The translations under genes and the position numbers were made by a program. From positions 102 through 64,101 of the forward strand of contig CAIVKO010000233.1 of NCBI GenBank assembly GCA_903906515.1: a stretch of 64,000 bases of DNA, given 5' to 3'. This document shows positions 935 through 64,000 of the stretch, in pieces. Under the pieces are notes generated by a model. The model worked only from the letters and a program-made list of their open reading frames with translations, did no database searches and was not told where the DNA came from. Each line of letters starts with the position of its first letter. Position 1 is the first letter of the stretch. Source of the stretch: Akkermansiaceae bacterium (GTDB lineage: Bacteria > Verrucomicrobiota > Verrucomicrobiia > Verrucomicrobiales > Akkermansiaceae).

Positions 935-966
935 GAAGCGTCTTCATTCAAATGGCTTCATGCGGT

Positions 967-1010
967 CCCCCGTTTGTGGGAATGGACAGACTCGTGGAGT
1001 CGGGTAGATT
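967..1010 (+). promoter_or_regulatory. Conserved box plus putative -35/-10 promoter, copy 1 (upstream of the GH95 operon)
   Basis: CCCCCGTTTGTGGG-AA-TGGACA-N16-TAGATT. The same geometry occurs at 26090, 39040 (minus strand) and 39130. Confidence 0.72.
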
Positions 1011-1131
1011 CGCGACATGCCCAGAAGGTGCTCGCGTTGGTCATCCGTAGGGCCAATATCAGATTCGTCATTCTCAAGGTGACCGTGACATCGTGAAGCG
1101 CAGGGGATGATGGGAAATCATAGATCAAAGT

Positions 1132-12840: not shown

Positions 12841-12902
12841 TATGAATGTGATTCTGGTTGATAGATGAATTAATGATTGATGAAAAAAATGTTAAAAAAA
12901 CA

Positions 12903-16886: not shown

Positions 16887-16940
16887 AATGAAACAAAAGA
16901 AATGGAGTATATAATGAAACAAATAAAAATGGAGTATAGC

Positions 16941-18389: not shown

Positions 18390-18420
18390 TGGGTGTTGGT
18401 GTTTCTCACAGGTGTCAAAT

Positions 18421-21727: not shown

Positions 21728-24700
21728 ATGTCCTGCAAACAAACATATTTGATTCCGGCTGCGACCATTCGCGCTCAGCACCGGAATCGGATGCATCACA
21801 GTCCCAGCCGCGCGCGCTGCGGATTCGCGCTGGTCAGCACGCTCTCGCTGATGATCCTGCTCACGGTCATCGCAGTGGGCATGTTGACCCTCTCCTCGAT
21901 CACCTTACGTAGCTCCAGTCAGGGTCAAGCCATCGTGATGGCGCGAGCCAACGCCCGGCTCGGTCTGATGCTCGCGCTAGGCGAATTGCAATCCACTCTC
22001 GGCCCTGATAAACGAGTCTCTGCGCCCGCCGCAGCGGTGATTTCCTCCGCTAAGCAGCCGCACCTAACCGGCGCATGGGAGTCCTGGCGCTGGGATCCGG
22101 CTAAATCCTCCTCTCCGGCATACGTTGAAAAACGCACGAAATTCCTCCGTTGGCTCGTCTCCACCGTCAACCCTGTGGATGCCAAATTGTTTGCGCTGCC
22201 TGCGTCCGATCCGTCCGTGGATTCGGTGGAATTGATCGGTGCGCTCGGTCATATGAACGTGCCAAACTCGGTGCGTGCAGCAAAAATTCCGGTTATGAAT
22301 TCAGTGATCCCCGGCGCTCTGGCGTGGGCGGTTTTTGACGAGAGTGTCAAAGCTTCCATTGATCTGGGTGATCCGGCGACAAAACCGACCGCCGGGGTGG
22401 AGGTCGCCACTCGTAAAGCACCTAACCGATTTCGAGCGGATATCATCGATCCTGCGAAATTTGCAGCCTTGAAAACACCGGTCAACCTCGTCACGCTTGA
22501 AACCGCGGTGATCCCTAGTGGCCAGGATAGCGCGCCGGAATTCCGCAAGCGATTCCATGAATTTACCACCGGTTCGCTCGGCCTGCTAACCGATACCGCC
22601 AACGGCGGCCTGAAGACCGATCTCACAGCGCTTTTCGAGAGTGCTACATTTCCTACAAGCTCCTTTCCCACCGCCACGCCCTACTCAAACCTCGCGTCCG
22701 GAGCCCCGCGTTGGAGTTACCTCTACGACCATTATCGCAAATATAAAACCGTGACGGACGCCAATCTGGGCACCCCCACCTACGTCCCGTCCGCCACCGA
22801 ACTCGCACCTTCATTCGACGGGATGGACTACTCACCCCGGAAGGAACGCCTGCTACCCGTCATCGCCAAGATGCAACTCGTGTTCTCGATCGTCTCGCAC
22901 CACGCGAATATTAAGGACCGCATAAACTTTATGGACCAATACGGCGATCCCAAGGGCAATGACAACCATGCCGTGCCGCAGATTGTATACGAACCAGTCA
23001 TCACCCTTTTCAATCCCTACGACGTGGCGCTTGACCTCAAGAAACTGCGCATCCGCGTATGGGATCCGCCGGTTGGATTTCGCTTCGCCAAGGTCATGAG
23101 CGGGGCCGTGAATTGGTACCGCGATGAAATGACTAACGGCGAGTTTCACGGACTGGCACGATTCAATGATGTCAACGAGCGCAATACTGCCGCGCGCCGG
23201 TGGTTCACTCTCTATCTTACAGATGGCACCAGCCAAGCTGCAGGTAACGCGCTGCGGTTGCAACCCGGCGAGGTGAAGGTGTTCTCCAGTCGCGTCGAGA
23301 GCAACTGGAGTTGGTCCTACGAATGCGCTGATGAAAACGTACCTAGGTCGTTTTTTGACTGTAGGGTCAATAATAACTTCGGCAACATCGATAACCGCAC
23401 CAGCAACAAGCTGGGCGTGGAAGCTGTTCCCGGCTGGGATCCCCGCGCCGGTCTGCAAACCGACCACCTGAGTTATGGATTCCTGCGACCACCTGCAACC
23501 CTCTACGCATTCGAGAATGTGGCAGATTGGCGTTCGCCCAAGTGGGGTTTCGTATCTATCAGAATTACTGATGAAGTGCAGGTCGAACTCAAGGCTCTGC
23601 GGACGACTGCAATCAACAGCGGCGTGCCGGACTTCCAAGTGGACGTTCTGGCCGGTGAAAATGAGGACGTCACGCAGGACATCCTGCGCTCTTTCCGCTT
23701 CAACTTTGCCAACCCTACCGCAGAAATCAGTGAAAACCCAGCTAAACCAGTGATTTCGCGGAAATACCGGGTTGCTGACACTCTGCAGAAATGGACAGAA
23801 ACGGGCATCGGGGGCAAGAAGCCGCTCGCCATGCTGGAAATGACCGCTCGTACCACTCGCGACCCGCTGGACGACAGCAAGGCATGGGTTTATAATAATC
23901 CAGTGGTCGAAGGCGGCGAGCAGACCACCAGCGTTGTGGGAGCAGCTAACCAGAGTTACGATGTCAGGCTGATCGAGCTCACCGGTTGGTCCAGCTTCCC
24001 GATGATCGAATGGGACACGACGCTGGGTGCGGGGTACGGACGCGGTTACTTCGGGTCCAGTCGCAGTTCTAACGAAGGCGTGACCAATGTGCCGATGTGT
24101 CATGTGCCGGTGGCACCCGCCGCGTCTATCGGCGATCTAATCGCCACAAATCTGGTCTCCGGTGCTTCTCTGCCGCGCATCGTGCACCCGTTCGGCAATT
24201 CGCGCGCCCATCCGCTGCTCCCTGCGGCGCAAGTCTCTCGATTGCTCGGTGGCACGACTTTGCTCGATCATTCGTATTTACTCAATAATACGCTATGGGA
24301 TAGCTACTACTTCTCATCGTTGTCAGCATATGCTGGCGGGGTGTTCACATCCAATCTCACTCGGCGCATGGTGTTGGAAGGAGTTCTCGACGGTTCCAAA
24401 CCTGCGCTCAATACCCGCCTGAGGCCCGCGGTTATTCCCGGTGACGCTGCCCTGCTGGCCACGAAACTCGACACGCTCAGTGATGCGGATTTCGCCAAAA
24501 AGATCGCCGGATACATGGCCGTGGCCGGTCCTTTCAACCTGAATTCAACCTCTATCGACGCCTGGCGCTCGGTGTTGTCTTCACTGCGTGATCGTGAGGT
24601 CACCGTCTGGAAAAACCGTGCCACACCCAACCCGGACGCCACTCCTTTTGCGCGCATGGGACTTCCTCTCACCGGACCCACGGATACCAGCGCCAACGTC

Positions 24701-25324
24701 AATGTGCTTGGCCAAATTCGCTGGGCCGGCTATCGAAACCTTGATGACTTCCAAATCGAAGCTCTCGCCAAAGCCATAGTGACCGAAATTCAAAAACGCG
24801 GCAGCGAGGACCAGGCTCCATTGCTCACTCTAGCAGAATTTGTCAACCGCCGTCCTGGCGCAGTCGACGGTCTCCACAGCTTGGCTGGTATCCTGCAAAC
24901 CGCCATCGACTTATCCGGGGTGAACACCGTGAACCATGGCAAGGATTCGAAGCTGATTCAAAGCGCGGACATCGCCGTGGCCCGCAAGACCGGCACGGCA
25001 ACGCCCGAAGCCATGAACGGATTCACCGGCGAAGGCTCGCCTCCTATACTCACTCAAGGTGACCTGCTCGGTGCCTTGGCCCCCATTGCAACAGTCCGCG
25101 GCGATACTTTCAAGATCCGTGCATACGGCGAGACGACCTCCAGCACGGGCAGCGTTATTGCTAAGGCTTGGTGCGAGGCAGTGGTTCAACGGTTGCCGGA
25201 ATTCATCGACCCGGCGGACTCGCCTGAAACGCCCTTAGTTAAACTCATCCGGCCTACTAACCAATCCTTCGGCCGAAGCTTCCGCATTGTGTCATTCCAC
25301 TGGCTCAACGCCGGGGAAATATGA
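21728..25324 (+). CDS. Giant PilX/GspK-like prepilin protein (Verru_Chthon cassette protein A-like), copy 1
   Basis: Class III signal RARCG|FALVSTLSLMILLTVIAVG lacking Glu+5, then ARANARLGLMLALGELQ..GPDKRVSA. C-terminal motif VRGDTFKIRAYG...WCEAVVQR...FGRSFRIVSFHWL. The true start may be 21791. Confidence 0.8.
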   Translation: MSCKQTYLIPAATIRAQHRNRMHHSPSRARCGFALVSTLSLMILLTVIAVGMLTLSSITLRSSSQGQAIVMARANARLGLMLALGELQSTLGPDKRVSAPAAAVISSAKQPHLTGAWESWRWDPAKSSSPAYVEKRTKFLRWLVSTVNPVDAKLFALPASDPSVDSVELIGALGHMNVPNSVRAAKIPVMNSVIPGALAWAVFDESVKASIDLGDPATKPTAGVEVATRKAPNRFRADIIDPAKFAALKTPVNLVTLETAVIPSGQDSAPEFRKRFHEFTTGSLGLLTDTANGGLKTDLTALFESATFPTSSFPTATPYSNLASGAPRWSYLYDHYRKYKTVTDANLGTPTYVPSATELAPSFDGMDYSPRKERLLPVIAKMQLVFSIVSHHANIKDRINFMDQYGDPKGNDNHAVPQIVYEPVITLFNPYDVALDLKKLRIRVWDPPVGFRFAKVMSGAVNWYRDEMTNGEFHGLARFNDVNERNTAARRWFTLYLTDGTSQAAGNALRLQPGEVKVFSSRVESNWSWSYECADENVPRSFFDCRVNNNFGNIDNRTSNKLGVEAVPGWDPRAGLQTDHLSYGFLRPPATLYAFENVADWRSPKWGFVSIRITDEVQVELKALRTTAINSGVPDFQVDVLAGENEDVTQDILRSFRFNFANPTAEISENPAKPVISRKYRVADTLQKWTETGIGGKKPLAMLEMTARTTRDPLDDSKAWVYNNPVVEGGEQTTSVVGAANQSYDVRLIELTGWSSFPMIEWDTTLGAGYGRGYFGSSRSSNEGVTNVPMCHVPVAPAASIGDLIATNLVSGASLPRIVHPFGNSRAHPLLPAAQVSRLLGGTTLLDHSYLLNNTLWDSYYFSSLSAYAGGVFTSNLTRRMVLEGVLDGSKPALNTRLRPAVIPGDAALLATKLDTLSDADFAKKIAGYMAVAGPFNLNSTSIDAWRSVLSSLRDREVTVWKNRATPNPDATPFARMGLPLTGPTDTSANVNVLGQIRWAGYRNLDDFQIEALAKAIVTEIQKRGSEDQAPLLTLAEFVNRRPGAVDGLHSLAGILQTAIDLSGVNTVNHGKDSKLIQSADIAVARKTGTATPEAMNGFTGEGSPPILTQGDLLGALAPIATVRGDTFKIRAYGETTSSTGSVIAKAWCEAVVQRLPEFIDPADSPETPLVKLIRPTNQSFGRSFRIVSFHWLNAGEI

Positions 25325-25357: not shown

Positions 25358-26065
25358 ATGTCAGTTTACCCGATCATCGTTGTCGCTGTTCTAATGGCTA
25401 TGCTCCCGCCGTTGCACGCCCGTGAACAACCTGCCACACGCGCTGAAATCCGCCTGCTCGCCTTTCAACCCGACCTGGCTACTGACGAGGCCTACGTCCA
25501 CGACCCCGATGCGCCCGCCGAAACCGTGGCTATAAAAGTTTCTATCAAATCCTATCTGAATCACGAGTTTGACACCGTTATGCTCACCGGAAATCGGATC
25601 GTGATCACCACCAAGCCGGAGCGTGTCTCGATCACCCGCTCGAATGAAGTGTTAGGAATGGCCGATCTTCCGGATGGGGTGCGATCAGCCATTCTACTGT
25701 TTCTGCCGGCACCGCCCAACGGTAAGACCCGCTTCCATATCATGGTCATTGATGATTCAAAGCGCGCTTTCCCTGTTGGTTCGTTTCGCGTCTCCAACCT
25801 AAGCCCACTACCTGTGCGCATCGTGCTAGAGGAAAAATCCTACGATTTTAAGCCTGGGGAAGTCCAACTCATCACCGATCCGCCCGTGCGTGCGGGAAAA
25901 CAATCCGGCATGAAAGCCTTTGCTTTCCACGACAAGATCTGGCACCGCATCGGCTCGGGAATCTGGCCCGCGCCGGGCACTAACCGTGTCGTGCAAGTCT
26001 TGTACGGCAACACAGTCAAGGGGCAGGTGCAGCTCCGCGCCTTTGACGACGTCCCACCCCGCTAA
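25358..26065 (+). CDS. Small secreted hypothetical protein, partner of the PilX-like gene (copy 1)
   Basis: Signal peptide, 235 aa, beta-rich (LLFLP...VIDDSKRAFPVGSFRVSNLS). Distant homolog of the ORF at 63362 in the same position. Confidence 0.8.
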   Translation: MSVYPIIVVAVLMAMLPPLHAREQPATRAEIRLLAFQPDLATDEAYVHDPDAPAETVAIKVSIKSYLNHEFDTVMLTGNRIVITTKPERVSITRSNEVLGMADLPDGVRSAILLFLPAPPNGKTRFHIMVIDDSKRAFPVGSFRVSNLSPLPVRIVLEEKSYDFKPGEVQLITDPPVRAGKQSGMKAFAFHDKIWHRIGSGIWPAPGTNRVVQVLYGNTVKGQVQLRAFDDVPPR

Positions 26066-39173: not shown

Positions 39174-39205
39174 GTGTTTTGTTAACCGCTCGACAACCTA
39201 GTTTC

Positions 39206-47404: not shown

Positions 47405-49597
47405 ATGAGAAAAACGATTTATCGGTTGGGAATATTGGTTGTGGCGGGCGTGCTGTGTTCCGCCAGAATGACGGAGGCGCTTGCCGCGGAAGTTACCTTG
47501 CGGGATTTAACCGGGAAGGATGCGCCAGCAGGAGCCGTTTGGCTGGATACCAAGGACTTGAGTTCAGTCAAAGTTGGATTCGGCACCGTTGGAGCCGGCA
47601 AAGCCTGTGACGGCAAAAACCCGATTTCTATCGGCAAACAGGTTTTTGCGCACGGGATGGGTGTTCATGCAGAAAGCGTGGCGGAGGTCAGTCTCAATAA
47701 GAAAGCGACTCGATTCGTAGCAGCAGTCGGCGTGGATGATCAGGTTAATACGGGTGGTACTGTTGTGTTTGAGGTCTGGGTCGATAAAGTGAAGAAGGCG
47801 GAATCCGGAGTTATGCGGTGCGGGGATGCTCCGAAGCTGATTTCCGTTGACCTGACCGGTGCCGCGAAGATGAAGTTGGTGGTGTCGGGGAATGGTGATG
47901 GCCTGGACAATGATCATGGGGACTGGGGCGGGGCCGCTGTGTTCGGTCCTGGAAATGCCGTGTCCGTAGGTCCCGACGTTCCGTACAAAGCGCTGACAAA
48001 ATCAGTCGAACGCTGGCAGGATTGGCATTTTGGAATGTTCATTCACTGGGGGCCTGTCAGCCTGACGGAACAGGAAATCAGTTGGTCGCGCTCGAACACC
48101 AATCCGAACTGCCCCAACAACGGTCCAACACAGGCAGCGGTCTATGACGAGCTTTACAAGAAGTTTGACCCAAGAAATTTCAACGCCACGCAATGGGTCG
48201 CCACTGCGAAAGCTGCCGGTATGAAATACATGGTGTTGACCGTAAAGCATTGCGACGGCTTTCTTCTCTGGGACTCCAAGGTCTCGGACTACAACATCAT
48301 GCATACGCCGTTCAAGCGCGACGTCTGTGCAGAATTGGCTGTGGCGGCCCGCAAAGCCGGAATGGGGCTCGGGTGGTATTTCTCTCCGCCGGACTGGAAA
48401 GATTCCGACTGCCGTTCGGCGAAGAACGTGGAGTTTGTCAAGCGCATGCAAGCTGAACTGACAGAGTTGCTCACCAAATACGGCACGATTGACATCCTGT
48501 GGTTCGACTGCGACGGTGCGTCAGTTCCGTGGGATCAGGATGAAACTTATGCCCTGGTTCGCCGGTTGCAGCCAGGCATCGTGATCAATAATCGCCTGGA
48601 TAGTCCCAGCGCTGCGTATTCAGCGAGCGAAATAGGCTCGTGGGCAGATTTCTACACCCCAGAGCTACACATTGGCGGCTTTGACAACATGCGGCCTTGG
48701 GAATCCTGCATGACAGTTTCCGCTCGTGGTCAGTGGGCCTGGGGTGGCCCGTCTGATGGTTCGAAGTCGGCAGCTGAGTGTTTGGGCATGTTAATCCGTT
48801 GCGCTGGAGCTGGTGGCAATGTGCTCATGAATGTTGGTCCGCGTCCGGATGGGGTTATAGATCCTATTCAGACCACTCCTCTTAAGGAGGTTGGTATGTG
48901 GCTGGAGAAGTATGGCGAGAGCATTTACGGTACGCGGGGTGGGCCGTTCAAGCCTGACGCCTTCGGCGTCTCCACGCACAAGTTGAACACAATTTACATT
49001 CACATTCTCAACTGGCCTGGAGATACACTGGAATTGCCGGATATCCCGGCGAAGATCGTCCGGAGCGTTGCCTTGACTGGTGGCGCTGTCGCTGTGACTC
49101 AGGGTGATGGCCGTATTTCCATTTCGCTGAAGACCTGCGAACGCCAGCCTGTGAACACCGTTGTCAAGCTGGAGTTGGATCGGAAGGCTGGCGAGATCGT
49201 GTCGCCCCGCGGGCTGGCGGCGGGCAAGCCGGTCAAGGCGTCGTCTAGCCTTACGAAGGGCGGCGCAACGGTTCCGGAGGCGATTGTGGATGGGCGCGCC
49301 GATACGCGCTGGTCGTCGGACCACTCCGACCTCCAGTGGGTTGCGGTTGATTTGGGCGGGAACCAGCGTGTGGCACGCGTGGAGTTGGACTGGGAAAGTG
49401 CCTATGCAAAAGAACTAGCCATCGAGGTTTCCCCCGATGGCGAGAACTGGAAGGAAGTTCAGCATGTGAACGACAGTGGCGGCGGGACGCAGGTGATCCG
49501 CTTCGATCCGGTCGAGACGCGCTGGGTGCGGATGCGTGGCATTAAGCGCGGGACGCAATGGGGGTATTCAATCTGGGAAATGCGAGTGTTCCCATGA
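47405..49597 (+). CDS. NPCBM + GH29 alpha-L-fucosidase + CBM32
   Basis: WQDWHFGMFIHWG, KHCDGF, ILWFDCDG, PWESCMTV and LMNVGPRPDG. ATG 47405 gives a signal peptide. Confidence 0.92.
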   Translation: MRKTIYRLGILVVAGVLCSARMTEALAAEVTLRDLTGKDAPAGAVWLDTKDLSSVKVGFGTVGAGKACDGKNPISIGKQVFAHGMGVHAESVAEVSLNKKATRFVAAVGVDDQVNTGGTVVFEVWVDKVKKAESGVMRCGDAPKLISVDLTGAAKMKLVVSGNGDGLDNDHGDWGGAAVFGPGNAVSVGPDVPYKALTKSVERWQDWHFGMFIHWGPVSLTEQEISWSRSNTNPNCPNNGPTQAAVYDELYKKFDPRNFNATQWVATAKAAGMKYMVLTVKHCDGFLLWDSKVSDYNIMHTPFKRDVCAELAVAARKAGMGLGWYFSPPDWKDSDCRSAKNVEFVKRMQAELTELLTKYGTIDILWFDCDGASVPWDQDETYALVRRLQPGIVINNRLDSPSAAYSASEIGSWADFYTPELHIGGFDNMRPWESCMTVSARGQWAWGGPSDGSKSAAECLGMLIRCAGAGGNVLMNVGPRPDGVIDPIQTTPLKEVGMWLEKYGESIYGTRGGPFKPDAFGVSTHKLNTIYIHILNWPGDTLELPDIPAKIVRSVALTGGAVAVTQGDGRISISLKTCERQPVNTVVKLELDRKAGEIVSPRGLAAGKPVKASSSLTKGGATVPEAIVDGRADTRWSSDHSDLQWVAVDLGGNQRVARVELDWESAYAKELAIEVSPDGENWKEVQHVNDSGGGTQVIRFDPVETRWVRMRGIKRGTQWGYSIWEMRVFP

Positions 49598-51011: not shown

Positions 51012-53216
51012 ATGAAAAGAAAAGAAAAACAGAATCGTATGAGAAACAAGTTTCTGGTCATCATAGCCGTTGGAGTTATGGGATGCGGGCTTGCCTCTGC
51101 CGCGCCGGCAACAACCGCGCAAGCGGATGCCACCGCGCCCGCCATGAAATACAGCGCCGTTTTTACCGAGCCACCGAAGAATGTCCCCACTTACTACATG
51201 CCTGATGGGCCTCTGCTGGGTAACGGCGATCTCGGCATCGCGCTGGCGGGGCCGCCGGAAGAACAGCGCTTCTACATCGGCAAAAACGACTGGTGGGGGT
51301 ATGGTGATGGTTCGCGTGCGATGCCGGTCGGAGGACTGACTCTTGCAATTACCGAATTGAAGGGGGCAAGCTACCGGCAGGAGCAGGATCTTGCATTGGC
51401 GGAGGTGCGAGGAACTTTCACCAACGGTGAGGTTACAGTGCAGACGCGCTCATTCGTTGATACCTATTCCAATCTATTGGTGACGGAATTGAAGTGTGCA
51501 GGCAGCAAACCGGTAACTGCCGTATTATCCCAGAAAAACGGCTTGGACGAGCCATGGGGAACCAGCCATACGAGCCTTCCCTCCAGCGTCTTGTGTTACA
51601 CGCGGAAGAGCCAGGACGCGTCTCTCGACCAACGTATGGATATCGCGGTGGCGAGCCGTATCATTGGCGGCAAGCCCGTTGTTGATGCCGGCGCGGGCAC
51701 GCTGAAACTGACACTCAATGCGGGCGAGGTGGTGACGATCGTGACGTGTGTGCTCTCCAAGCTGGATGCACCTGATTGTCTGGAGACAGCGAAAACGAAG
51801 GTGTTGGCGTTGCAGGCAAAGGATATTCCGGCGATGGCGGTTAAGCACAGAGAGTGGTGGAAGGGCTTCTGGGCACGCTCATTCATCGAGATTCCTGACA
51901 AGGAGATTGAGAAGCGTTGGTATGCGGCCTTGTATGTGTTGGGCTCGTGCAGCAAGGAGGGAAAGGTGGCACCTGGGCTGTGGGGATGCTGGGTTACCCT
52001 TTTCGCCCAATGGCAGGGCGATTATCATTTAAATTATAATTTCCAGGCACCGTATTACATAACCTATTCCAGTAACCACGCAAATTTGTCGGTGCCTTTT
52101 TACCAGGCGATTCTTGAATCGGTGCCCCGAGCCAAAGAGGTAGCAAAGAAGCACGGTTGGATGGGTGTTCATTTTCCTGTATGTATCGGGCCAAGGGGGA
52201 TTTTTCCGGAGGGCGAAAAGGATCATGGACAGCGTTCGAATGCTGCGTATGTCGCATTGAATTTCATTTGGCAATACCAGTATACACAGGACAAGGAGTT
52301 CCTTAAAATGACGGCGTATCCTTATTTATTGGAAGTGGCAGATTTCTGGGAAAACTATCTCAAGCTGGAAAATGGCCGGTATGTGATACATGGCGATTCT
52401 ATCCATGAAGGTTCAGGCGAGGATGTGAATCCCATTCTCTCGTTGGGTCTTGTTAGAAATCTATTCAAGAATTTGATCCTCATGAGCAAGGACCTGAGCG
52501 TGGATGAGTCCCGGCGGGCGAAGTGGCAGGACATTCTGGACAAGCTCAGTGCGTATCCCTTGCAGGAACGCAACGGCAAGACCGTGTTCCGCTACACGGA
52601 AAAGGGCTTGGATTGGTGGAACGACAATACATTGGGAATCCAGCATATCTTTCCGTGTGATACCATCGGACTTGATAGTGATCCGAAATTGCTGGCTATC
52701 TGCCATAATACCATCAATGAGATGGCCCGTTGGGCGGATTATAACGGCTTCTCGTCGTGGTACACTACCTGTGCTCGTATTGGGTATGATCCGAAAATTA
52801 TCCTGACTAAACTGCGCGAGGAGTGCGACAAGCACTCCTTTCCGAACCTCCTACTGTTTTACGGTGGTGGCGGCGTCGAGAGTTGCGGTGGCTTTCTGGC
52901 GATCAACGAGATGCTGCTGCAAAGCCACGAGGGCGTGATACGGTTCTTTCCCTGCTGGCCGAAGGATCAGGACGCCCGCTTCGGGACATTGCGCACTGTG
53001 GGCGCTTTTCTCGTGTCAGCTGAATTGAAAATCGGCGTGGTATCCGGCGTGAAGATTGTCAGCGAGAAGGGCAAACCCTGCACGGTACAGAATCCCTGGC
53101 CGGGCAAGAAAGTCCGAGTTGCGCGCAACGGCAAGACGAATGAAATACTAACTGGAGAACGCCTGTCTCTGAAGACCTCTGCAGGCGAAACTATTGTCCT
53201 CGCGCCAGGGGATTGA
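51012..53216 (+). CDS. GH95-like glycoside hydrolase, paralog 2
   Basis: PDGPLLGNGDLG and WQGDYHLNYNFQAPY. The C-terminal third is nearly identical to the 39206 gene. Confidence 0.75.
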   Translation: MKRKEKQNRMRNKFLVIIAVGVMGCGLASAAPATTAQADATAPAMKYSAVFTEPPKNVPTYYMPDGPLLGNGDLGIALAGPPEEQRFYIGKNDWWGYGDGSRAMPVGGLTLAITELKGASYRQEQDLALAEVRGTFTNGEVTVQTRSFVDTYSNLLVTELKCAGSKPVTAVLSQKNGLDEPWGTSHTSLPSSVLCYTRKSQDASLDQRMDIAVASRIIGGKPVVDAGAGTLKLTLNAGEVVTIVTCVLSKLDAPDCLETAKTKVLALQAKDIPAMAVKHREWWKGFWARSFIEIPDKEIEKRWYAALYVLGSCSKEGKVAPGLWGCWVTLFAQWQGDYHLNYNFQAPYYITYSSNHANLSVPFYQAILESVPRAKEVAKKHGWMGVHFPVCIGPRGIFPEGEKDHGQRSNAAYVALNFIWQYQYTQDKEFLKMTAYPYLLEVADFWENYLKLENGRYVIHGDSIHEGSGEDVNPILSLGLVRNLFKNLILMSKDLSVDESRRAKWQDILDKLSAYPLQERNGKTVFRYTEKGLDWWNDNTLGIQHIFPCDTIGLDSDPKLLAICHNTINEMARWADYNGFSSWYTTCARIGYDPKIILTKLREECDKHSFPNLLLFYGGGGVESCGGFLAINEMLLQSHEGVIRFFPCWPKDQDARFGTLRTVGAFLVSAELKIGVVSGVKIVSEKGKPCTVQNPWPGKKVRVARNGKTNEILTGERLSLKTSAGETIVLAPGD

Positions 53217-58132: not shown

Positions 58133-59929
58133 GTGCACACTGAACTGGTAAAAATTATTTTACACGGCCTGTTTCGGTTGTTCGGTGTTGTGCTGTGCAT
58201 GGCGCTGCTGCCGGTGTGCGCCGCAAGTATGAGGCCTGATGATGTTTTTGACGATGCACTTGAGTCGGCCGAAGTTCCGCGCACTCAAGCCGCCGCACCT
58301 GAGGTTCCTTCTTCCGCCGCGACGGTGGCGCTGGCGGCCAAAGCAGCTGCTTGCCGCGAGAGTTTGTTCAAGGCGACCTCTGGTGCGCTCTACTGCTTTA
58401 CGCCGGCGGTGCGAGCCGCCTATCTGGACTATGCGCGGGCCAAGACTCGTGCGGATCTCGCTTCCGCCGACAAGGCAATTCCAGAGGAGTTCCTCAGGTG
58501 GATCGACCGCACACCGGATGTAGCGGGCAGTGTTTACTCGGCGAGGGTCAACTGTGCGAACGTGGTGATGATGCTCTATGCACTTCGGTTGGATCTCGGC
58601 CAGGAGTGTTTTGAGAAATACCGCCAACTGGCGCTAGCCATGGCCATCATACATGCAGAGCAGGGGACTCAGGCGAATCTCGCGCCTCGCGCCCCGATCC
58701 GCCTGACTATCCCGGCTTGCCCGCTGAAACCGGTCAACACGAAGGAGCTAGGCCGTACCTTGGACGTGAATGACCACATCATCAACTTCCTGAACGGGAA
58801 TGAGATTTCCGACGCCAAGGGGAAACGCACGCTGATCGCGGCGGACGTGATGGCCAACCAGGGGCTGCAGGAGGCGTTCAACAACTACATGAAGTCGAAC
58901 GGCTGCAATGTGTCCGTCAACTGCGGTGACAACTCGATTGATTCTAAGCGCAAAAGCCGGGTCACGGGGCCGGATGCCAACGGAATTCTCAGCGCGTTCA
59001 AGTTGTTCAGGGCCGCATACGTCGCCAAGGGACTGCTGCCAGAGAAGCCGGACCCCTCGCCCTCGCCCGCAGCGAACTGCCGTTTCCTGATCCGCAACGC
59101 CGAGTGCGCGACGTCAGTGAAAGGCAATCCGAAATTACCGAACTGCCCGTTGACGGCACCTTGGCCGGTGCTGACTTTTCTGGCCCGGGACATGCGATCA
59201 TTGAGGGAGCAGGACGAAATCTGGCAGCGCTATTGTGCCAAGGGCGAGCTGCGCACATATGCCGAATACGCCGGAGAGATCGCACAACAGCCCGATTTTC
59301 TGGCGGCCCGTCGCCTTTGTCCCTTCCCATTCGCCTACAACACCGTTCCGATGATGTTGAAGGATGGCGGTGTATGCGGCACCATGGCCATGCTGGCCAC
59401 GCGCACATACAAGGCGCTCGGCGTGCCCGCTTCCACAGCCGGTCAGCCAGGGCATTGCGCCTTGGTCTATTTTGCACAGGACGCGAAGACGGGTAGTTAT
59501 CAGTGTAAGGGAAGTCAGTTCATGCGAGCCGGCCCCAAGGATACCTCGGTGCTGACTCCGTGGAATTTCGGCGAGAAGATCGAGCGCAAAAAGATGGTTT
59601 ACCACCAGAGCATCGCTTGGGCAGTGAACCACGGCTTCGGTGCCTTCATCGATTCCATGATGGCCTGGCAGCTGTTCTGTCTCCTGCCGGAGGCCGACCG
59701 CAGGGACCACGGGATGAAGTTGCTGGAAAGTGGGCTCGCGCTGAATCCTTACAACTTTTTGCTGGCGGATGCGGGTGTCGCGGCCGCCGTCACACCGGAG
59801 GAGAAGAGTCGTTTTGAAAAGTCTTTTGCTGCGGCTCTGGGTTCGGTGACCCGGCCAGACTGTCCGAAAACGGGACTCTACCCGGATACCATCTACGGCA
59901 GACTGAAAAAGAGTCTAAAGTTAAAGTAA
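58133..59929 (+). CDS. Secreted hypothetical protein (GGVCG...GQPGHCA motif; possibly a transglutaminase-like Cys/His fold)
   Basis: GTG start, signal/lipoprotein-like N-terminus, 598 aa ORF tightly packed between its neighbours. No family recognised. Confidence 0.7.
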   Translation: MHTELVKIILHGLFRLFGVVLCMALLPVCAASMRPDDVFDDALESAEVPRTQAAAPEVPSSAATVALAAKAAACRESLFKATSGALYCFTPAVRAAYLDYARAKTRADLASADKAIPEEFLRWIDRTPDVAGSVYSARVNCANVVMMLYALRLDLGQECFEKYRQLALAMAIIHAEQGTQANLAPRAPIRLTIPACPLKPVNTKELGRTLDVNDHIINFLNGNEISDAKGKRTLIAADVMANQGLQEAFNNYMKSNGCNVSVNCGDNSIDSKRKSRVTGPDANGILSAFKLFRAAYVAKGLLPEKPDPSPSPAANCRFLIRNAECATSVKGNPKLPNCPLTAPWPVLTFLARDMRSLREQDEIWQRYCAKGELRTYAEYAGEIAQQPDFLAARRLCPFPFAYNTVPMMLKDGGVCGTMAMLATRTYKALGVPASTAGQPGHCALVYFAQDAKTGSYQCKGSQFMRAGPKDTSVLTPWNFGEKIERKKMVYHQSIAWAVNHGFGAFIDSMMAWQLFCLLPEADRRDHGMKLLESGLALNPYNFLLADAGVAAAVTPEEKSRFEKSFAAALGSVTRPDCPKTGLYPDTIYGRLKKSLKLK

Positions 59930-59936
59930 TAAGTCC

Positions 59937-62900
59937 ATGTGTGACATGACCCACGCAACTCCCGTTCCTGTTGCTGTTCTCCCGAGGTTGATTCCACGGA
60001 AGGCGGGATTTACATTGGTGGTCACGCTCACCCTGGTCATTCTCCTGACTATCCTCGCGGTCGGCCTGCTTTCTCTCTCCTCTGTCGCGATGCGCAGTTC
60101 GTCCCAGGATATGGCCATGGCGGAGGCGAAGGCCAATGCCAAGCTGTCTTTGATGCTTGCCATTGGTGATATCCAAAAACAACTCGGCCCCGACACTCGG
60201 GTCTCGGTTCCTGCGGATCAACTGAGCACCGATGCCGCCACGGTCGCCAACACATCCAAACACTTCGTCGGTGTCTATAAATCTTGGGATGCCAACACCG
60301 TGGACCGGCCTGTGCGTCCGGAATTCCTGCAATGGTTTGTTTCAGGAAATCCGACCAGTTTGGTTAAAAAGGATTGGGATTGGATCCCGTCACCGGACTA
60401 CGCTAACTCCATCGAGTTGGTTGGTGTGAAATCTGCCGGCCCCGGAGGGGACATTGTTAAAGTTCCGGTGATTTCATCGAATTCCACCGCTGCCGGTCGG
60501 CATCAGTTCGCGTGGTGGGTCAGCGATCTTGGCACCAAGGGACTCATTTCGCGAGCCAAGCAATTGACCAATGGAGTAGCCACCCTAGTCCGCGAGGATA
60601 TGCAAACCATGCCTGGCTACGGAATTGGAAACGTCGTATCTAATGGAGTCCGTCCATTTGAAACAGTGGATACGACCGACACTTCGCTGGAAAAAGTTAT
60701 CACATTGTCGAATTCTTCGTTGTTGACGGCAGGTCCTGTCAAGGGCCTTATCCATGATCTAACGGCATATAACCGTTCGCTTATCACCAACGTCCGTAGC
60801 GGAGGGTTCAGGAAGGATCTGTCGTTCTATCTTGAAAAAGATTCTGCAAACAAACCGGTGGAGCCCTTGTATATCGCGAAAGAGGGAGCTGTTTCCAAAG
60901 CGGGAATCAACATGTCCGAGTTGTGGCTGCACTACAACATTTACAAAGAGTTGAAAAAAGGCGGACTCTACACCTATACCACAAATGATGCCATGCCCGC
61001 GACTGCGAGCTATCTTCAGATGCCGGCCACTAGCGCCGCTGCCTACGTGGATGACGCGTATTACTACAAACAACCCACGATCATTCAATACCAAACCCTG
61101 CTTTCTTTCCGCGCCAAACCGGCGATAGAGAACGGTGTGAGTGGTGCCTACCTGCAGATCGTCGTGGACCCCATCATCACCTACTGGAACCCTCTGGATG
61201 TGCCGGTCGTGGTCACTCCTGCATACAATTCCATCAGATACTGGCAACTGCCATATGACGTCAAAATCAACCTTGGCAGCAACACGGTGAACGCGAGCCT
61301 ATATAACTGCTTGGGCGGCGCTGAATGGAATTACATGACAGTCCTCGCCGGAAAAATCCAGCCTCTCGTGCTCAAACCGGGTGAGGTTGTCATGGTCTCT
61401 CAGGGACCTAACACGGACGTTGTCGATAAGGACATTAAGGGTGTCAACAATAACTTTATCGATGCTGTGGCGGGCTGGAATTTTGGTGGGGGAATTGCTT
61501 ATTTCTACGGAAATTCCAAACTTTTCCTGAAGGCAGGTGATTCGTTCAGCTACGAAGTCAATCCGAACTCGCAGGTGTCCTCCGGTTCCAGACGTTGGTC
61601 GATAAATAGCCATGATGTGTTTTACAAGGAAGACCGGGACTGGCGCGGGGAAACGATCGGCATCGGGGGAATTAGCGTGGATTACATGTATGGGCAACCC
61701 TACGATGAGCTAAATCCAAAACCCATAACCGCCAGGCTGACCGCGCTTTCCAGGCCCTCGTTTTTTGGAAAAATCCCGCCATCGAGCACTCGGCGGCTGA
61801 GCTATGAGCAGTTGGTGGGTCGGAAAGAGCCGTTCATGTTGTATTCCTACCGTGCTAAGACCGAAAAAGGATCAGAGAGGTCATCCAGGTTCCTCTCGCG
61901 TTTCAACCCAAAGTCGATGTTCACGGATTTTTATGATCTCAATGACAATGAACTGAACATGCTGCCTTATGAGGTCCAGATCAATCCCTTGAACAGTTTC
62001 AAGACTCCACTTCTTGAGGTCAGTGCCAACGGCAACGCCTATTTCGGCGGTGGAATGAATGCTGAAGACGGTAACTCGTTTTTATGCACTCATTCGGTGC
62101 CTCGTGAACCTCTCTATTCACTCGGTGCACTCCAATATGCTTTTGCCAACGGCCACACCACCCTTGCTCCCACCGCAGGTTACGGTATCGTCAAGGCCCG
62201 CCAGCCTGCTCTGCCCCAGATTATCCACCCCATCGGCAATTCCTTCGCTCCGTCGATCATGCCTCCTGACAAGACCAGCGGGGTGCTCAACGGTGGTCGC
62301 GTGCTGGCCGACCATTCTTACCTCGCCAACCGTGCCCTGTGGGATGATTGGTTTTTTTCGGGCATTTGCCCGCAAACTGCGGCAACCTTCACCACGAAAC
62401 GCAACCAAAAACAGGTCTATCAGGATTTTATCGACGGAAAACAAAAACTTCCTCTGCACCGCTACGTATCGGCACTCGGAAACGAAACTTCTGCAAGTGC
62501 GGTTGCCAAGCTCTTCACGGGGGGTGGGCTGCCTGCATCAGGTGCTCACTTGATAAGCGCCTCATTGCTGGAGGCTGAAGGAATGTTCAACGTGAACTCG
62601 ACCTCCGTTGAGGCATGGAAGAGCGTTCTCAGCGCCTTGAAAAAGCGGAACTCGATCACGCGTGCAACCGCTACCTCCGCAGAAATCAACACTCCCAATG
62701 AGAAGGAAACACCGGTTGCCGGCCTGAACTCACCACTCGAAACCATGGTGGATGCAAAAAATCCAGTCGCCATAAAGGAACCTTCACAATGGGCGGGACG
62801 GCGGACACTCAGCGATGATGAGATCAATTCACTCGCGATAGCGATCGTTAATCAGGTCCGCAAGCGCGGACCATTCCTCTCGCTGGCGGACTTCGTCAAC

Positions 62901-63353
62901 CGCCGCATTACCACCGATGAGACTCTGGCCCTTGCAGGCTGCATTCAGAGTGCTTTGGATTCAACTGATGTGCCTATCAACAAGGGATTCCAAGATACTT
63001 CCCGCAGCGTTACCTCCACTGCGGCTTATGTTTTTCCGAAGGCCGAGGCTGGGCCTGCGGCGACGGGTATTCCCGGGATCGTAAAACAGGCGGACATATT
63101 GACGCCCATCGCCCCTTATATCGCAGTCCGCTCCGATTCATTTCTCATCCGGACATGCGGGCGGAAAATGGATTCTAGCGGAAATGTCCTGGCCACGGCA
63201 TATTGCGAGGCGATTGTTCAACGTAAAGCGGATTTCATGGACCTGTTCAATCCCGTGACCACCGTGACTTCGGATCTCAGCGCCCTGAACAAGGTATTCG
63301 GTAGGCGTTTCCATATCATTTCATTCCGCTGGCTATCCCCCGACGAAATCTGA
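59937..63353 (+). CDS. Giant PilX/GspK-like prepilin protein (Verru_Chthon cassette protein A-like), copy 2
   Basis: PRKAG|FTLVVTLTLVILLTILAVG (no Glu+5), then AKANAKLSLMLAIGDIQKQLGPDTRVS. C-terminal motif VRSDSFLIRTCG...YCEAIVQR...FGRRFHIISFRWL. Confidence 0.82.
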   Translation: MCDMTHATPVPVAVLPRLIPRKAGFTLVVTLTLVILLTILAVGLLSLSSVAMRSSSQDMAMAEAKANAKLSLMLAIGDIQKQLGPDTRVSVPADQLSTDAATVANTSKHFVGVYKSWDANTVDRPVRPEFLQWFVSGNPTSLVKKDWDWIPSPDYANSIELVGVKSAGPGGDIVKVPVISSNSTAAGRHQFAWWVSDLGTKGLISRAKQLTNGVATLVREDMQTMPGYGIGNVVSNGVRPFETVDTTDTSLEKVITLSNSSLLTAGPVKGLIHDLTAYNRSLITNVRSGGFRKDLSFYLEKDSANKPVEPLYIAKEGAVSKAGINMSELWLHYNIYKELKKGGLYTYTTNDAMPATASYLQMPATSAAAYVDDAYYYKQPTIIQYQTLLSFRAKPAIENGVSGAYLQIVVDPIITYWNPLDVPVVVTPAYNSIRYWQLPYDVKINLGSNTVNASLYNCLGGAEWNYMTVLAGKIQPLVLKPGEVVMVSQGPNTDVVDKDIKGVNNNFIDAVAGWNFGGGIAYFYGNSKLFLKAGDSFSYEVNPNSQVSSGSRRWSINSHDVFYKEDRDWRGETIGIGGISVDYMYGQPYDELNPKPITARLTALSRPSFFGKIPPSSTRRLSYEQLVGRKEPFMLYSYRAKTEKGSERSSRFLSRFNPKSMFTDFYDLNDNELNMLPYEVQINPLNSFKTPLLEVSANGNAYFGGGMNAEDGNSFLCTHSVPREPLYSLGALQYAFANGHTTLAPTAGYGIVKARQPALPQIIHPIGNSFAPSIMPPDKTSGVLNGGRVLADHSYLANRALWDDWFFSGICPQTAATFTTKRNQKQVYQDFIDGKQKLPLHRYVSALGNETSASAVAKLFTGGGLPASGAHLISASLLEAEGMFNVNSTSVEAWKSVLSALKKRNSITRATATSAEINTPNEKETPVAGLNSPLETMVDAKNPVAIKEPSQWAGRRTLSDDEINSLAIAIVNQVRKRGPFLSLADFVNRRITTDETLALAGCIQSALDSTDVPINKGFQDTSRSVTSTAAYVFPKAEAGPAATGIPGIVKQADILTPIAPYIAVRSDSFLIRTCGRKMDSSGNVLATAYCEAIVQRKADFMDLFNPVTTVTSDLSALNKVFGRRFHIISFRWLSPDEI

Positions 63354-63361
63354 CAAAATTT

Positions 63362-64000
63362 ATGAAACTCATCCTGCTCTTGGCGCTGTTTATGTTACCC
63401 ATCCCTCTTTCGGGACAGGAAATGGGGAAGTCCGGCAATTCATCGATTATGATCCGCATGCTTGCGATGGTGGTTCCGCCGGAACTCGGAAAAGTTTATC
63501 TGATTTCCGATGATGTCCGGACTCCTGAATTCGACATCCCCGTCAATAATGTGAGCGAGCCTATGAAGGTTTTTCGGAGGATACTGATCCTCAAGGACTC
63601 AAAAAAAGACGCGATTCTCTGTAATATAATGCTGCCTGAGGAGGGGAAGCGATTTGTCATCGTGCTGGCACCGGCAAAAAATTCGGGATACACCGCACAC
63701 GTCATCCGCACCGATGATCTGTCGTTCCGGAAGGAGGACTGTTTTTTCGGCAACTTTACCCACAAGTCGATCCTAGGAAAACTAGGGACAAGTAAATTTT
63801 TATTAGAGTCCGGAAAGGTCGCAGTATACCGGCCGGAGGGAGCAAGGTCGGGTAACTTTTACGATATTGCATTCGCCACGCGGGGCGCTGAGGGCGATCG
63901 GATACTCAGCACTTCGCGTTGGCCGGTGGACAACCAGATCCGCAGTTATGTATTTTTTATCGAAGACCCCGTCGGCCACATCAGCTACCGTGCTATCGAT
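63362..64000 (+). CDS. Small secreted partner of the PilX-like gene (copy 2), truncated by the window end; missing from the supplied ORF track
   Basis: Manual translation from ATG 63362, MKLILLLALFMLPIPLSGQ...RFVIVLAP...VIRTDDLSF...FFGNFT...STSRWP...RSYVFF, is open to the window edge. Confidence 0.8.
   Translation, partial: MKLILLLALFMLPIPLSGQEMGKSGNSSIMIRMLAMVVPPELGKVYLISDDVRTPEFDIPVNNVSEPMKVFRRILILKDSKKDAILCNIMLPEEGKRFVIVLAPAKNSGYTAHVIRTDDLSFRKEDCFFGNFTHKSILGKLGTSKFLLESGKVAVYRPEGARSGNFYDIAFATRGAEGDRILSTSRWPVDNQIRSYVFFIEDPVGHISYRAID

Follow-up and report, generated by a model that had tools for sequence, protein, structure and literature searches.

Organization of the Two Modules

The window analyzed here is the whole stretch of 64,000 nucleotides from contig CAIVKO010000233.1 of an Akkermansiaceae bacterium. 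It contains two modules of the same design, in which a very long gene (A) is followed on the same strand by the gene of a shorter partner protein (P). The features of both modules are listed in Table 1. In module 2, a gap of 8 nt separates the stop codon of A2 from P2. The P2 gene continues beyond the window, which contains 213 of its residues, and ~7 residues are lost past the end; the partner at the orthologous locus of module 2 (L001, 91% identical) has 220 residues.

Table 1. Positions of modules 1 and 2 and of the segments of A2 in the window
Feature	Position	Strand	Description
A2 (module 2)	59937..63353	+	ORF, 1,138 aa; giant K-class-like (GspK/PilX-like) minor pilin candidate
A2 leader, aa 1-24	59937..60008	+	ends ...PRKAG before the putative prepilin-peptidase site between G24 and F25
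A2 N-core, aa 25-115	60009..60281	+	hydrophobic start, alpha-1 helix H26-83, first strands
A2 beta-rich middle, aa 201-760	60537..62216	+	subfamily-specific
A2 C-region, aa 761-1138	62217..63350	+	conserved
A2 extreme C-terminal strand FGRRFHIISFRWLSPDEI	63297..63350	+	nearly invariant across both subfamilies
P2 (module 2 partner)	63362..64000	+	ATG at 63362; signal peptide and two beta-sandwich domains
A1 (module 1)	21728..25324	+	1,198 aa; A2 paralogue, different ancient subfamily
P1 (module 1 partner)	25358..26065	+	235 aa; signal peptide and two Ig-like beta-sandwiches

The Ends of A Are Conserved and the Middle Diverges

A1 and A2 are full-length paralogues, which BLASTP joins in a single alignment with 29% identity (E = 2e-94). 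The initial annotation had described module 2 as having conserved ends and a divergent middle, and pairwise alignment bears this out, as the divergence is not uniform. In a global MAFFT alignment, using A2 numbering, the identity is 54.4% for residues 20–115, 36.4% for residues 116–200, 26.3% for residues 201–760, and 38.8% for residues 761–1138 (378 residues). Most of the gaps are found in residues 201–760 (133 gap columns). Taken together, the ends are 41.8% identical and the middle 27.6% (chi-square p = 1.7e-6), and the profile obtained with a sliding window agrees. The N-terminal ~170 residues, which had been said to align well, are indeed conserved, but the strong part stops near residue 115. 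All the motifs named in that annotation, including the central islands, occur in both proteins. The corresponding A1/A2 pairs are FNLNSTSIDAWRSVLSSL / FNVNSTSVEAWKSVLSAL, PLLTLAEFVNRR / PFLSLADFVNRR, QGDLLGALAPIATVRGDTFKIR / QADILTPIAPYIAVRSDSFLIR, FGRSFRIVSFHWLNAGEI / FGRRFHIISFRWLSPDEI, YEPVITLFNPYDV / VDPIITYWNPLDV, and LQPGEVKVFS / LKPGEVVMVS. When A2 is compared with all eight other subfamilies, the identity is 40–57% for the N-core, 31–43% for the C-region, and 18–22% for the middle. As judged from these alignments, conserved ends and a divergent middle are the general pattern in all subfamily pairs.

The middle had also been proposed to be a variable domain. It does diverge between subfamilies, but it is neither swapped nor hypervariable. 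It is homologous across subfamilies, with invariant residues throughout, and the column identity (window means) is 0.07–0.36 between and 0.34–0.70 within subfamilies. Inside each subfamily, the middle is approximately as conserved as the ends. The dN/dS ratio for close orthologues is 0.13 in the middle versus 0.16–0.22 in the ends (0.126 is the value for A2 and its L001 orthologue), and by this measure the middle is under purifying selection between close orthologues.

Pilin-like N Terminus and Conserved C Terminus of A

The N terminus of A carries the motif (R/K)-G-F-(A/T/S)-L-(V/I)-(V/I). Residues G24 and F25 are present in 101 of the 101 aligned sequences that cover the region, with Arg or Lys before the glycine. 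Position +5 is Val or Ile in nearly all of the 101 sequences and Glu in none. The lack of Glu5 is typical of the K class, and a long N-terminal helix is a hallmark of pilins. The AlphaFold2 model of A2 has a pLDDT of 91.2 and a pTM of 0.90, with a pLDDT below 50 for residues 1–24, and it contains a helix of 58 residues (26–83), within the ~50–60 residues of a pilin α1 helix. By its sequence, A carries the class III (prepilin) signal of the K class, with a short basic leader, Gly at −1, and hydrophobic residues from +1 to ~+20.

The T2SS_GspK profile matches this N terminus in 10 of 14 members (best E = 2.4e-6), none of them at the cut-off, Verru_Chthon_A matches it in 10 of 14 (best E = 4.8e-7), and PilX_N in five of 14. 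All matches to curated models fall far short of the cut-offs. A2 itself is below the curated cut-offs of PilX_N (PF14341; 19.9 versus 25.5 bits) and T2SS_GspK (NF037980; 13.6 versus 130 bits). Verru_Chthon_A (TIGR02600) is the top-scoring curated model for most A members, but it is not matched over its full length: it reaches only 18.8 bits with A2 and 15.6 bits with A1 against a cut-off of 332.3, and the match covers only positions 1–59 of the 1,296 in the profile. Matches of A homologues to T2SSK (PF03934) have E values of 0.13–0.38, short of the cut-off. The weak T2SSK and HHH_6 matches in homologues are positionally coherent and lie where they would be expected, ahead of the terminal strands, in the part equivalent to the C-region of A2.

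The C-region of A2 contains the helix-hairpin-like motifs FNVNSTS..AW and GPFLSLADFVNRR, a helical stretch at residues 950–1061, and the final strands (DSSP). At the extreme C terminus, which forms a strand in the model (E1123–1133), G1122, R1123, and F1130 are invariant, and F1121, R1131, W1132, and E1137 are each found in 110 or more of the 113 sequences. This near-invariance fits the terminal strand that GspK and CpaL provide in cis (PMC13533445).

The order of secondary structure elements in the A2 model is compatible with a GspK-like fold, in which a helical domain is inserted in a pilin sheet and the C-terminal strand completes that sheet in cis. A Foldseek search of the Protein Data Bank with A2 lists GspK (3ci0_K) at rank 4, which is not significant (E = 0.3, TM 0.16), and the A profile has no match among PDB sequences. 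Alignment to a small set of GspK sequences with hhalign gives E = 0.005 at the N terminus and E = 0.5 at the C terminus; in the latter, FNLN, the HhH motif, and the terminal strand are paired in the right order. Past its first ~60 residues, A is not significantly similar to GspK or PilX in sequence or in fold, and the label "PilX-like" of the initial annotation is based on the N-terminal 60 residues and the architecture, not on significant fold similarity. No significant fold match was found for the middle in the PDB or BFVD. Because the model of A is very confident and yet has no significant structural neighbor, the middle domain probably has a new fold arrangement.

The Partner Consists of Two Ig-like Domains

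The partners had been described as only distantly similar. P1 and P2 are 22% identical over 139 residues in a pairwise comparison (E = 0.02), in agreement with this description, and alignment of the P1-family and P2-family profiles with hhalign also proves their true homology (probability 98.9%, E = 1.2e-17, 218 columns, 18% identity). An HMM built from P2-type partners other than P2 recognizes P2 with E = 4e-97. The partner carries a signal peptide that lacks a lipobox cysteine, and it has no match in Pfam or NCBIfam. A carbohydrate-binding family was detected in neither A nor P. The AlphaFold2 model of P1 (pLDDT 90.3) shows two Ig-like sandwiches, and its best Foldseek match is the extracellular domain of PepT1/2 (E = 2e-7).

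The partner was compared with two known protein types and fits neither. The top 50 Foldseek matches contain no chain of a PapD/FimC-type chaperone. The PilY1/PilC tip adhesins are large proteins with a C-terminal β-propeller, which donate a terminal strand to the K pilin; the partner has ~220 residues, two β-sandwiches, and no propeller, and A has its own terminal strand. Some proteins with the partner domain are membrane-anchored and have an N-terminal cytoplasmic segment.

A and Its Partner Diverge Together

The partner is present downstream of 89 of the 93 A genes with room there, with gaps of ~10 nt. Pairwise distances among the A proteins correlate with those among their partners (r = 0.90), and the subfamily partitions of A and partner agree (adjusted Rand index up to 1.0), so that at least nine A subfamilies correspond to nine partner subfamilies. 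The earlier proposal that the partner co-diverges with A is upheld by this pairing, by the correlation, and by the concordant subfamilies. Between subfamilies, the divergence of the partner (0.80) equals that of the A middle (0.79), not that of the A ends (0.60). Inside the A2 subfamily, the partner shows no specific tracking of the central part of A.

Across ~80 Verrucomicrobiales loci, A and the partner are the only conserved neighbors. Tandem arrays hold two to four modules, drawn from different subfamilies. The A family comprises more than 590 loci in the species representatives of Verrucomicrobiales, and the partner superfamily comprises ~1,200 clusters at 50% identity. Canonical pilin N termini occur in ~4 open reading frames across 82 loci, none of them adjacent to A, and there is no I-J-K operon at these loci. 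The two-gene A-P unit is an uncharacterized, unannotated, and widespread family in Verrucomicrobia, with many ancient variants.

Glycoside Hydrolase Context

Both modules close a long string of glycoside hydrolase (GH) genes on the same strand. For module 1 the string is GH95, GH127, GH78, GH43, SASA, and GH29, with a gap of 25 nt, and for module 2 it is GH95, GH27, GH2, GH29, SASA, and a GH36-like gene, with a gap of 7 nt. Orthologues of both modules, 91% identical, occur in the same GH context. Among 55 A2-type loci, GH-like genes on the same strand are found upstream of one, and any GH-like gene is found within 6 kb of nine. More distant A1- and A2-type loci adjoin tRNA synthetases, MatE, two-component systems, or other modules. 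The GH context of the modules is lineage-specific.

Discussion

On balance we lean, by a little, toward the modules being alternative filament-tip units, each formed by a giant K-class minor pilin and a secreted partner. The conservation pattern, the pilin-type N terminus, the confident models, the strict pairing of A with P, and their co-divergence are observed and speak for it. A would be a K-class minor pilin (GspK/PilX/PilK-like), with a prepilin-type leader that is presumably cut after the glycine. By analogy with GspK and CpaL/TadG, the C-terminal region may fold back on the N-terminal pilin core and give the last β-strand in cis; the two conserved ends would then form a single domain, which would dock on other minor pilins and on the filament core. 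The filament itself, a type IV pilus or a type II secretion pseudopilus, would have its genes at another place in the genome. The β-rich middle of ~550–650 residues would be an insertion placed at the distal tip, where it may determine specificity. P is probably translationally coupled to A (gaps of 8–33 nt) and has diverged along with A in every subfamily. After Sec export its most likely role is to bind A in the periplasm, where it would be a co-subunit of the tip or a factor for assembly. Several such modules, which belong to at least nine ancient subfamilies, are found in Verrucomicrobiales genomes, sometimes four in tandem, and this points to a set of alternative tips that differ in binding specificity.

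A different role for the partner, which we regard as possible but rather doubtful, is that of an assembly chaperone in the periplasm, which would keep the large head of A in an assembly-competent state and then be released, instead of being a permanent tip or cap subunit. With its length of ~220 residues, its Sec signal, and its two Ig-like domains, the partner broadly recalls PapD-type chaperones, and the strict one-to-one pairing with likely translational coupling would suit such a role. On the other hand, PapD/FimC-like structures are missing from the top 50 fold matches, of which the PepT1/2 extracellular domains are the best, and nothing tells transient from permanent binding. Chaperones of this kind are not known from type IV filament systems. 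It is unlikely, in our estimation, that A is not a filament subunit at all but a bitopic inner-membrane protein, whose pilin-like N terminus serves only as a signal anchor in a stand-alone envelope complex of A and its partner, for example one for binding, sensing, or scaffolding. The lack of adjacent I, J, major pilin, or machinery genes would be explained in this way, as would a pilin similarity limited to the hydrophobic N terminus, the lack of a significant fold match to any pilin, and the membrane anchors and cytoplasmic N-terminal segments of some partner-domain proteins. However, the invariant G-F-x-L with a basic residue before the glycine suits a prepilin-peptidase site better than a generic anchor, the 58-residue helix is a pilin hallmark, the N-terminal models that are matched are those of the K class without Glu5, and the near-invariant C-terminal strand parallels that of GspK and CpaL (PMC13533445).

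The neighboring enzymes raise the question of whether the modules are tip adaptors of glycan operons, which capture polysaccharide or recruit the GHs of the operon on a filament for secretion or uptake, as a Verrucomicrobial counterpart of Sus-like systems. We consider this very unlikely. Both modules end GH strings, as do their 91%-identical orthologues, and Akkermansiaceae have been proposed to attach to fucose-rich glycans by a type IV-like pilus (PMC13174399). Against this, the GH context is not conserved in the A2-type loci (one and nine of 55), the distant A1- and A2-type loci have non-GH neighbors, the GH density of the window could make the adjacency a matter of chance, and no carbohydrate-binding family is seen in either protein. 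A broader version, somewhat less improbable but still speculative, is that Verrucomicrobiales possess a library of interchangeable tip cassettes (a giant K-type pilin with a co-evolved Ig-like partner, in at least nine ancient types and up to four in tandem), which would serve one type IV filament machine and give each type its own specificity for ligand or cargo. In this freshwater lineage, two cassettes would have been wired to the ends of GH operons, so that a glycan-matched tip would be put on the filament whenever the matching enzymes are expressed, as a pilus-based functional counterpart of Sus-type glycan capture.

K-class minor pilins prime and cap type IV filaments, and the specificity of the tip is an active question. 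In the modules described here, a K-type subunit appears to have expanded to ~1,150 residues and to be locked to a dedicated secreted partner, with several anciently diverged versions per genome. If they are alternative tips, they would show how the exchange of a two-gene cassette can re-target one machine, and they would also be a candidate substrate-recognition device for Verrucomicrobia. These bacteria are major degraders of polysaccharides in lakes, oceans, and guts, and they are not known to have Sus-like systems. The middle domain of A is worth solving structurally.

A resembles GspK/XcpX and PilX/PilK in its prepilin-like N terminus without Glu5, its long α1 helix, and its weak N-terminal HMM matches, and it resembles GspK also in the helix-hairpin-like motifs followed by terminal β-strands in the same order and in the conserved extreme C-terminal strand. 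Unlike these proteins, A is 3–4 times larger, contains a β-rich insertion of ~550–650 residues, is encoded outside an I-J-K operon, is almost always followed by a dedicated secreted partner, and has many paralogues per genome. The Verru_Chthon cassette protein A (TIGR02600) is likewise Verrucomicrobial, longer than 1,000 residues, multi-copy, and similar in the kind of N terminus. It is encoded in cassettes of four genes, together with the pilin-like proteins B, C, and D. Neither in the window nor at the related loci do A1 and A2 have pilin-like genes beside them, and the sole conserved neighbor of A is a partner that is not a pilin. The partner resembles the extracellular domain of mammalian PepT1/PepT2 (5a9d, 5a9i, 7nqk), which also consists of two tandem Ig-like β-sandwiches (Foldseek E = 2e-7 to 1e-5, TM up to 0.53–0.62, ~220 columns, 11–16% identity). 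This is probably a shared fold only, in an unrelated biological context.

CpaL/TadG of Tad pili begins with a pilin-like domain and continues with a large middle that assembly does not need; its extreme C-terminal strand, supplied in cis, is required for assembly (PMC13533445). The architecture and conservation pattern of A fit this scheme, which provides a rationale for conserved ends with a middle that is free to diverge. CpaL/TadG differs from A in that it belongs to another filament class; a vWA-type domain was not detected in A, no sequence relationship between the two is evident, and no co-evolving partner gene is known for CpaL. Large functional modules are presented at the filament end by the modular pilins PilB and PilC of Streptococcus sanguinis, of which PilC forms a glycan-binding minor-pilin complex (PMC8179133, PMC9934059), and by the PilY1/PilC/MshQ tip adhesins. 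In those systems the module is appended C-terminally, or it is provided in trans, by strand donation from a distinct protein that is not a pilin. In A, by contrast, the module would sit inside a K-type pilin as an insertion, and the additional protein is a small partner with two Ig-like domains.

Two modules with conserved ends and a divergent middle

Each module of the window consists of a gene for a giant pilin-like protein (A) followed by a gene for a small secreted partner (P). The features of both modules, of their surroundings and of the structural model of A2 are listed in the table. About seven residues are missing from P2, because the partner in locus L001, which contains the closest relative of module 2 (its A protein is 91% identical to A2), is 220 aa long; it is the last gene of the operon there. 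The window is DNA of an organism from a lake-water metagenome, with relatives in the Verrucomicrobiales (Akkermansiaceae, Luteolibacter, Haloferula).

Features of the window (nucleotide positions) and of the AlphaFold2 model of A2 (residues)
Feature	Position	Strand	Description
A1 ("copy 1")	21728-25324	+	ORF, 1,198 aa
P1	25358-26065	+	ORF, 235 aa; 33 nt after A1
A2	59937-63353	+	Single long ORF, 1,138 aa
P2	from 63362 (ATG)	+	8 nt after A2 stop; 213 codons inside the window, then runs off the end
Upstream of A1			GH95, GH127-like, GH78/GH43 with NPCBM, GDSL esterase, SASA esterases, GH78
Downstream of P1			GH29 gene
Upstream of A2			GH95-like, GH27 with NPCBM, GH2, GH29, SASA, GH95-like, GH36-like, GH2, unknown 598-aa protein
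598-aa ORF	58133-59929	+	Signal-peptide-like start; ends 7 nt before A2; no Pfam or NCBIfam match; absent before the A2 orthologue (91%) in L001
Autotransporter-associated beta-strand-repeat protein	54-857	+	Fragment; family recurs near A in nine loci
GH78 rhamnosidase	18244-21702	+	With the mechanically called start (TTG at 18244), the ORF overlaps the gene before by about 145 nt; start more likely near 18430 (MKRNMSMAAVAVLG...)
AraC-type regulator	28570-29703	-	With periplasmic-binding-like domain
GDSL-esterase/Big_3_5 protein	35512-38922	-	1,136 aa; internal duplication
Duplication in the GDSL-esterase/Big_3_5 gene	35942-36241 and 37004-37303		94% DNA identity; 1,062 nt apart
Paralogous pair	39179-41434 and 51012-53216
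Paralogous pair	12858-14504 and 16902-18389
Paralogous pair	46998-47297 and 49210-49509
GH/esterase strings	1132-28019 and 39179-59929		Two, long, each same-strand
A2 model, N-terminal helix	26-83		58 residues
A2 model, beta-strands	after helix, until about 200
A2 model, middle			Mainly beta
A2 model, helical stretch	950-1061		Holds the FNVNSTS..AW and GPFLSLADFVNRR motifs
A2 model, three last strands	1068-1078, 1084-1100, 1123-1133

The alignment of A1 with A2 spans both ends of the proteins, with 29% identity (E 2e-94). In A2 numbering, identity is 54% over residues 20-115, 36% over 116-200, 26% over 201-760, a stretch with 133 gap columns, and 39% over 761-1138; ends and middle differ significantly (chi-square p = 1.7e-6). 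This bears out the conserved ends and divergent middle proposed in the initial annotation, and all of the motifs quoted there were found in A1 and in A2. Strong conservation of the N-terminal part was also seen, but it ends near residue 115 rather than extending over some 170 aa. The two partners, described as only distantly similar, are indeed 22% identical (E 0.02). An HMM of each partner subfamily, built with the window sequences left out, still finds the partner of the other module in the window (E about 1e-8), and the P1-type and P2-type profiles can be aligned from end to end (hhalign probability 98.9%, E 1.2e-17, 18% identity).

Homologue searches revealed two large, separate subfamilies, one around A2 and one around A1. 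Their members are labelled only as hypothetical or as generic PilX/PilV/PulG, and no Pfam domain was found in either. An alignment was made of 113 sequences (68 A2-type and 45 A1-type). Within subfamilies, column identity is about 0.34-0.70 in the middle and about 0.40-0.75 in the ends, ranges that largely overlap, whereas between subfamilies it is 0.07-0.36 in the middle and 0.4-0.6 in the best-conserved stretches of the ends. The middle contains invariant residues throughout, for example Gly-289, Asp-294, Asn-418-Pro-419, Asp-421, Gly-482, Gly-513, Lys-630 and Gly-704, and is therefore homologous, not swapped. When A2 was compared with each of eight further subfamilies from related loci, identity was 40-57% in the N-core (starting at residue 20 or 25 and ending at 115), 31-43% in the C-region (residues 761-1138) and 18-22% in the middle (residues 201-760).

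Between A2 and its 91% orthologue, dN/dS is 0.126 for the middle, compared with 0.219 (N-core) and 0.162 (C-region). All parts are thus under purifying selection, with the middle as the most constrained large region, and a dN/dS of 0.13 rules out diversifying selection there. The divergence of the middle is therefore old and paralogue-specific and was afterwards frozen, and the middle is not hypervariable.

A and P are inherited as a unit

A survey of one genome per species yielded at least 590 A-encoding stretches, of which the best 80 loci were analyzed. Of the 93 A genes that leave enough space downstream, 89 have a partner-family ORF there, typically after a gap of about 10 nt. Clustering of all neighbours in the 80 loci showed that no gene other than A and P is conserved. 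After these two, the most frequent neighbour family is an unrelated autotransporter-repeat protein of ~1,000 aa, found in 9 of the 80 loci at inconsistent positions, and another apparent cluster consists of antisense ORF artefacts; the loci share no third conserved gene. Canonical pilin genes are rare near the modules. An exception is Luteolibacter sp. LG18, in which three genes adjoin two tandem modules (L086:14951-17421, minus strand), two of them with weak N_methyl (prepilin) matches.

Tandem arrays of two to four modules, each of a different subfamily, occur in several loci (L065:560-18900, L072:89-13641 and L078:4973-18900, and also L067, L070, L025, L028, L086 and L087); the spacing is roughly 900 nt and is occupied by the partner gene. 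Even among the 80 best loci, several MAGs are represented twice.

The distance between two A proteins correlates with that between their partners (r = 0.90). Average-linkage partitions of the two families agree completely at nine clusters each (ARI 1.0) and have an ARI of 0.70-0.95 at other thresholds, compared with a permutation maximum of 0.39. The co-divergence of partner and A that had been proposed is thus upheld, and adjacency, distance correlation and matching partitions together make a solid case that A and P are inherited and diverge as a unit. We infer that the two proteins also interact physically.

The evidence for a specific link of P to the middle of A is no more than suggestive. 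Divergence between subfamilies is 0.80 for P, 0.79 for the middle of A and 0.60 for its ends, and the partial correlation of P with the middle is slightly above that with the ends (0.49 versus 0.39). An exploratory analysis within the A2 subfamily gave no specific signal of partner co-divergence with the central middle; residual correlations were highest for residues 180-259 and 900-979 and negative for residues 420-660.

The partner proteins

Each partner begins with a Sec-type signal peptide, and neither P1 nor P2 contains a lipobox cysteine. The P1 model has two beta-sandwich domains (pLDDT 90.3), and strong structural similarity was found only to the extracellular regions of PepT1/PepT2, which consist of two Ig domains (E 2e-7 to 1e-5, TM up to 0.62). 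Its top 50 structural matches include no PapD-type chaperone, and the partner had no Pfam or NCBIfam match. A full HMMER scan with the partner profile gave 1,198 representatives of clusters with E <= 1e-3 and 263 with E <= 1e-10, nearly all of them stand-alone proteins of 215-270 aa. A few longer proteins (P0412, P0426, P0429, P0430, P0435 and P0431; 450-590 aa) combine a partner-like domain with a membrane helix, a cytoplasmic segment at the N terminus (MNxSxDPSDRLVDSLL...) and another conserved unknown domain (WYVQFGFESEGKWAPR...); none of them has a Pfam match, so no annotated fused domain was found.

The N terminus and predicted structure of A

The N terminus of A reads (R/K)-G-F-(A/T/S)-L-(V/I)-(V/I)-(T/S)-L... 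and continues with about 20 hydrophobic residues. The Gly and Phe are kept in all 101 aligned sequences that span this region, and none has a Glu at +5. It is a signal of the prepilin-peptidase type, in the variant that K-class minor pilins usually have. Matches of A to curated models are all to this class and cover the first ~60 residues, and none reaches its cut-off: PilX_N (5 of 14 members; E 7e-4 for A2), T2SS_GspK (10 of 14, best E 2.4e-6) and the Verru_Chthon cassette protein A model (10 of 14, best E 4.8e-7).

With the 113-sequence alignment as input, AlphaFold2 predicted A2 as a single body with very high confidence (pLDDT 91.2, pTM 0.90). The extreme C terminus, F-G-R-R-(F/Y)-x-(I/V)-x-S-F-R-W-L-x-x-x-E-(V/I), is almost invariant in A2-type and A1-type proteins. 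Several A homologues have weak Pfam T2SSK and HHH_6 matches at the GPFLSLADF region, the place where GspK has its helix-hairpin-helix domain. In an hhalign comparison of A with a GspK alignment of four sequences (E. coli gspK, pO157 etpK and two PDB fragments), only the N terminus scored (E 0.005). The C-terminal alignment, which matched cFNLN to FNVNS, the second HhH to GPFLSLADF and the terminal strand to SvRSDTFxIR, was sensible but did not reach significance (E 0.5). A Foldseek search of the PDB and BFVD with the full A2 model gave no significant match (GspK 3ci0_K was fourth, E 0.3), and searches of PDB sequences with the A-family profile and with a single sequence found nothing. Membership of A in the K class is suggested by the N-terminal signal, the long predicted helix and the compatible architecture rather than proven by its fold.

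Glycoside hydrolase context

Both modules end a long same-strand string of carbohydrate-active enzyme genes, and this context is common to the 91% orthologues of both. More distant members lack it: same-strand upstream GH-like genes occur in 1 of 55 A2-type loci, and annotated distant modules adjoin a tRNA synthetase, a MatE transporter, a two-component system or other modules. A GH context as a property of the family is thereby ruled out, and its absence from distant members indicates that the glycan link is a lineage-specific arrangement. It is possibly meaningful in light of a pilus-glycan proposal for Akkermansiaceae (PMC13174399).

The two GH/esterase strings make up almost the entire window. 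Their families are GH95, GH127-like, GH78, GH43, GH29, GH27, GH2, GH36-like, SASA and GDSL, and many of the genes also encode an NPCBM or F5/8 type C domain; together they constitute a fucose-, rhamnose- and galactose-oriented degradation locus. The three paralogous pairs, with 72-82% DNA identity over several hundred bases, are a GH95-like gene pair, a SASA esterase pair, and the F5/8 type C domains at the C-terminal ends of neighbouring genes; they indicate local duplication or gene conversion. Promoter and terminator scans gave results at chance level, and no RNA sequencing run was found to contain the locus.

Discussion

The window holds two of at least nine ancient module types. We found no paper or curated family that describes the A-P module. 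The initial picture of a conserved core, a variable domain and a co-diverging partner largely holds as a description, provided that "variable" is taken to mean specialized between old paralogues. The role of chaperone or cap that was first suggested for the partner is hypothetical. A pattern of old divergence that is then frozen is expected for functional specialization after duplication, not for an arms-race domain. The best reading is that the two genes encode a giant K-class-like minor pilin and a co-evolving secreted Ig-like partner. We consider it somewhat probable that such modules provide alternative tips for a type IV filament whose genes lie outside the window.

Ellison et al. (PMC13533445) show that a type IV filament tip can be initiated only if the beta-sheet of the K-class pilin receives its last strand; this strand comes in trans from PilC/PilY1, or is supplied in cis by GspK and CpaL/TadG. 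By analogy, both conserved ends of A would form one folded unit, bound to keep fitting the same I/J-type partners and the filament core. With the core constraint lying on the ends, the inserted middle would be free to specialize. In CpaL, an N-terminal pilin-like domain is followed by some 470 residues that are dispensable and then by an essential C-terminal strand (PMC13533445), a layout that A1 and A2 resemble on a larger scale.
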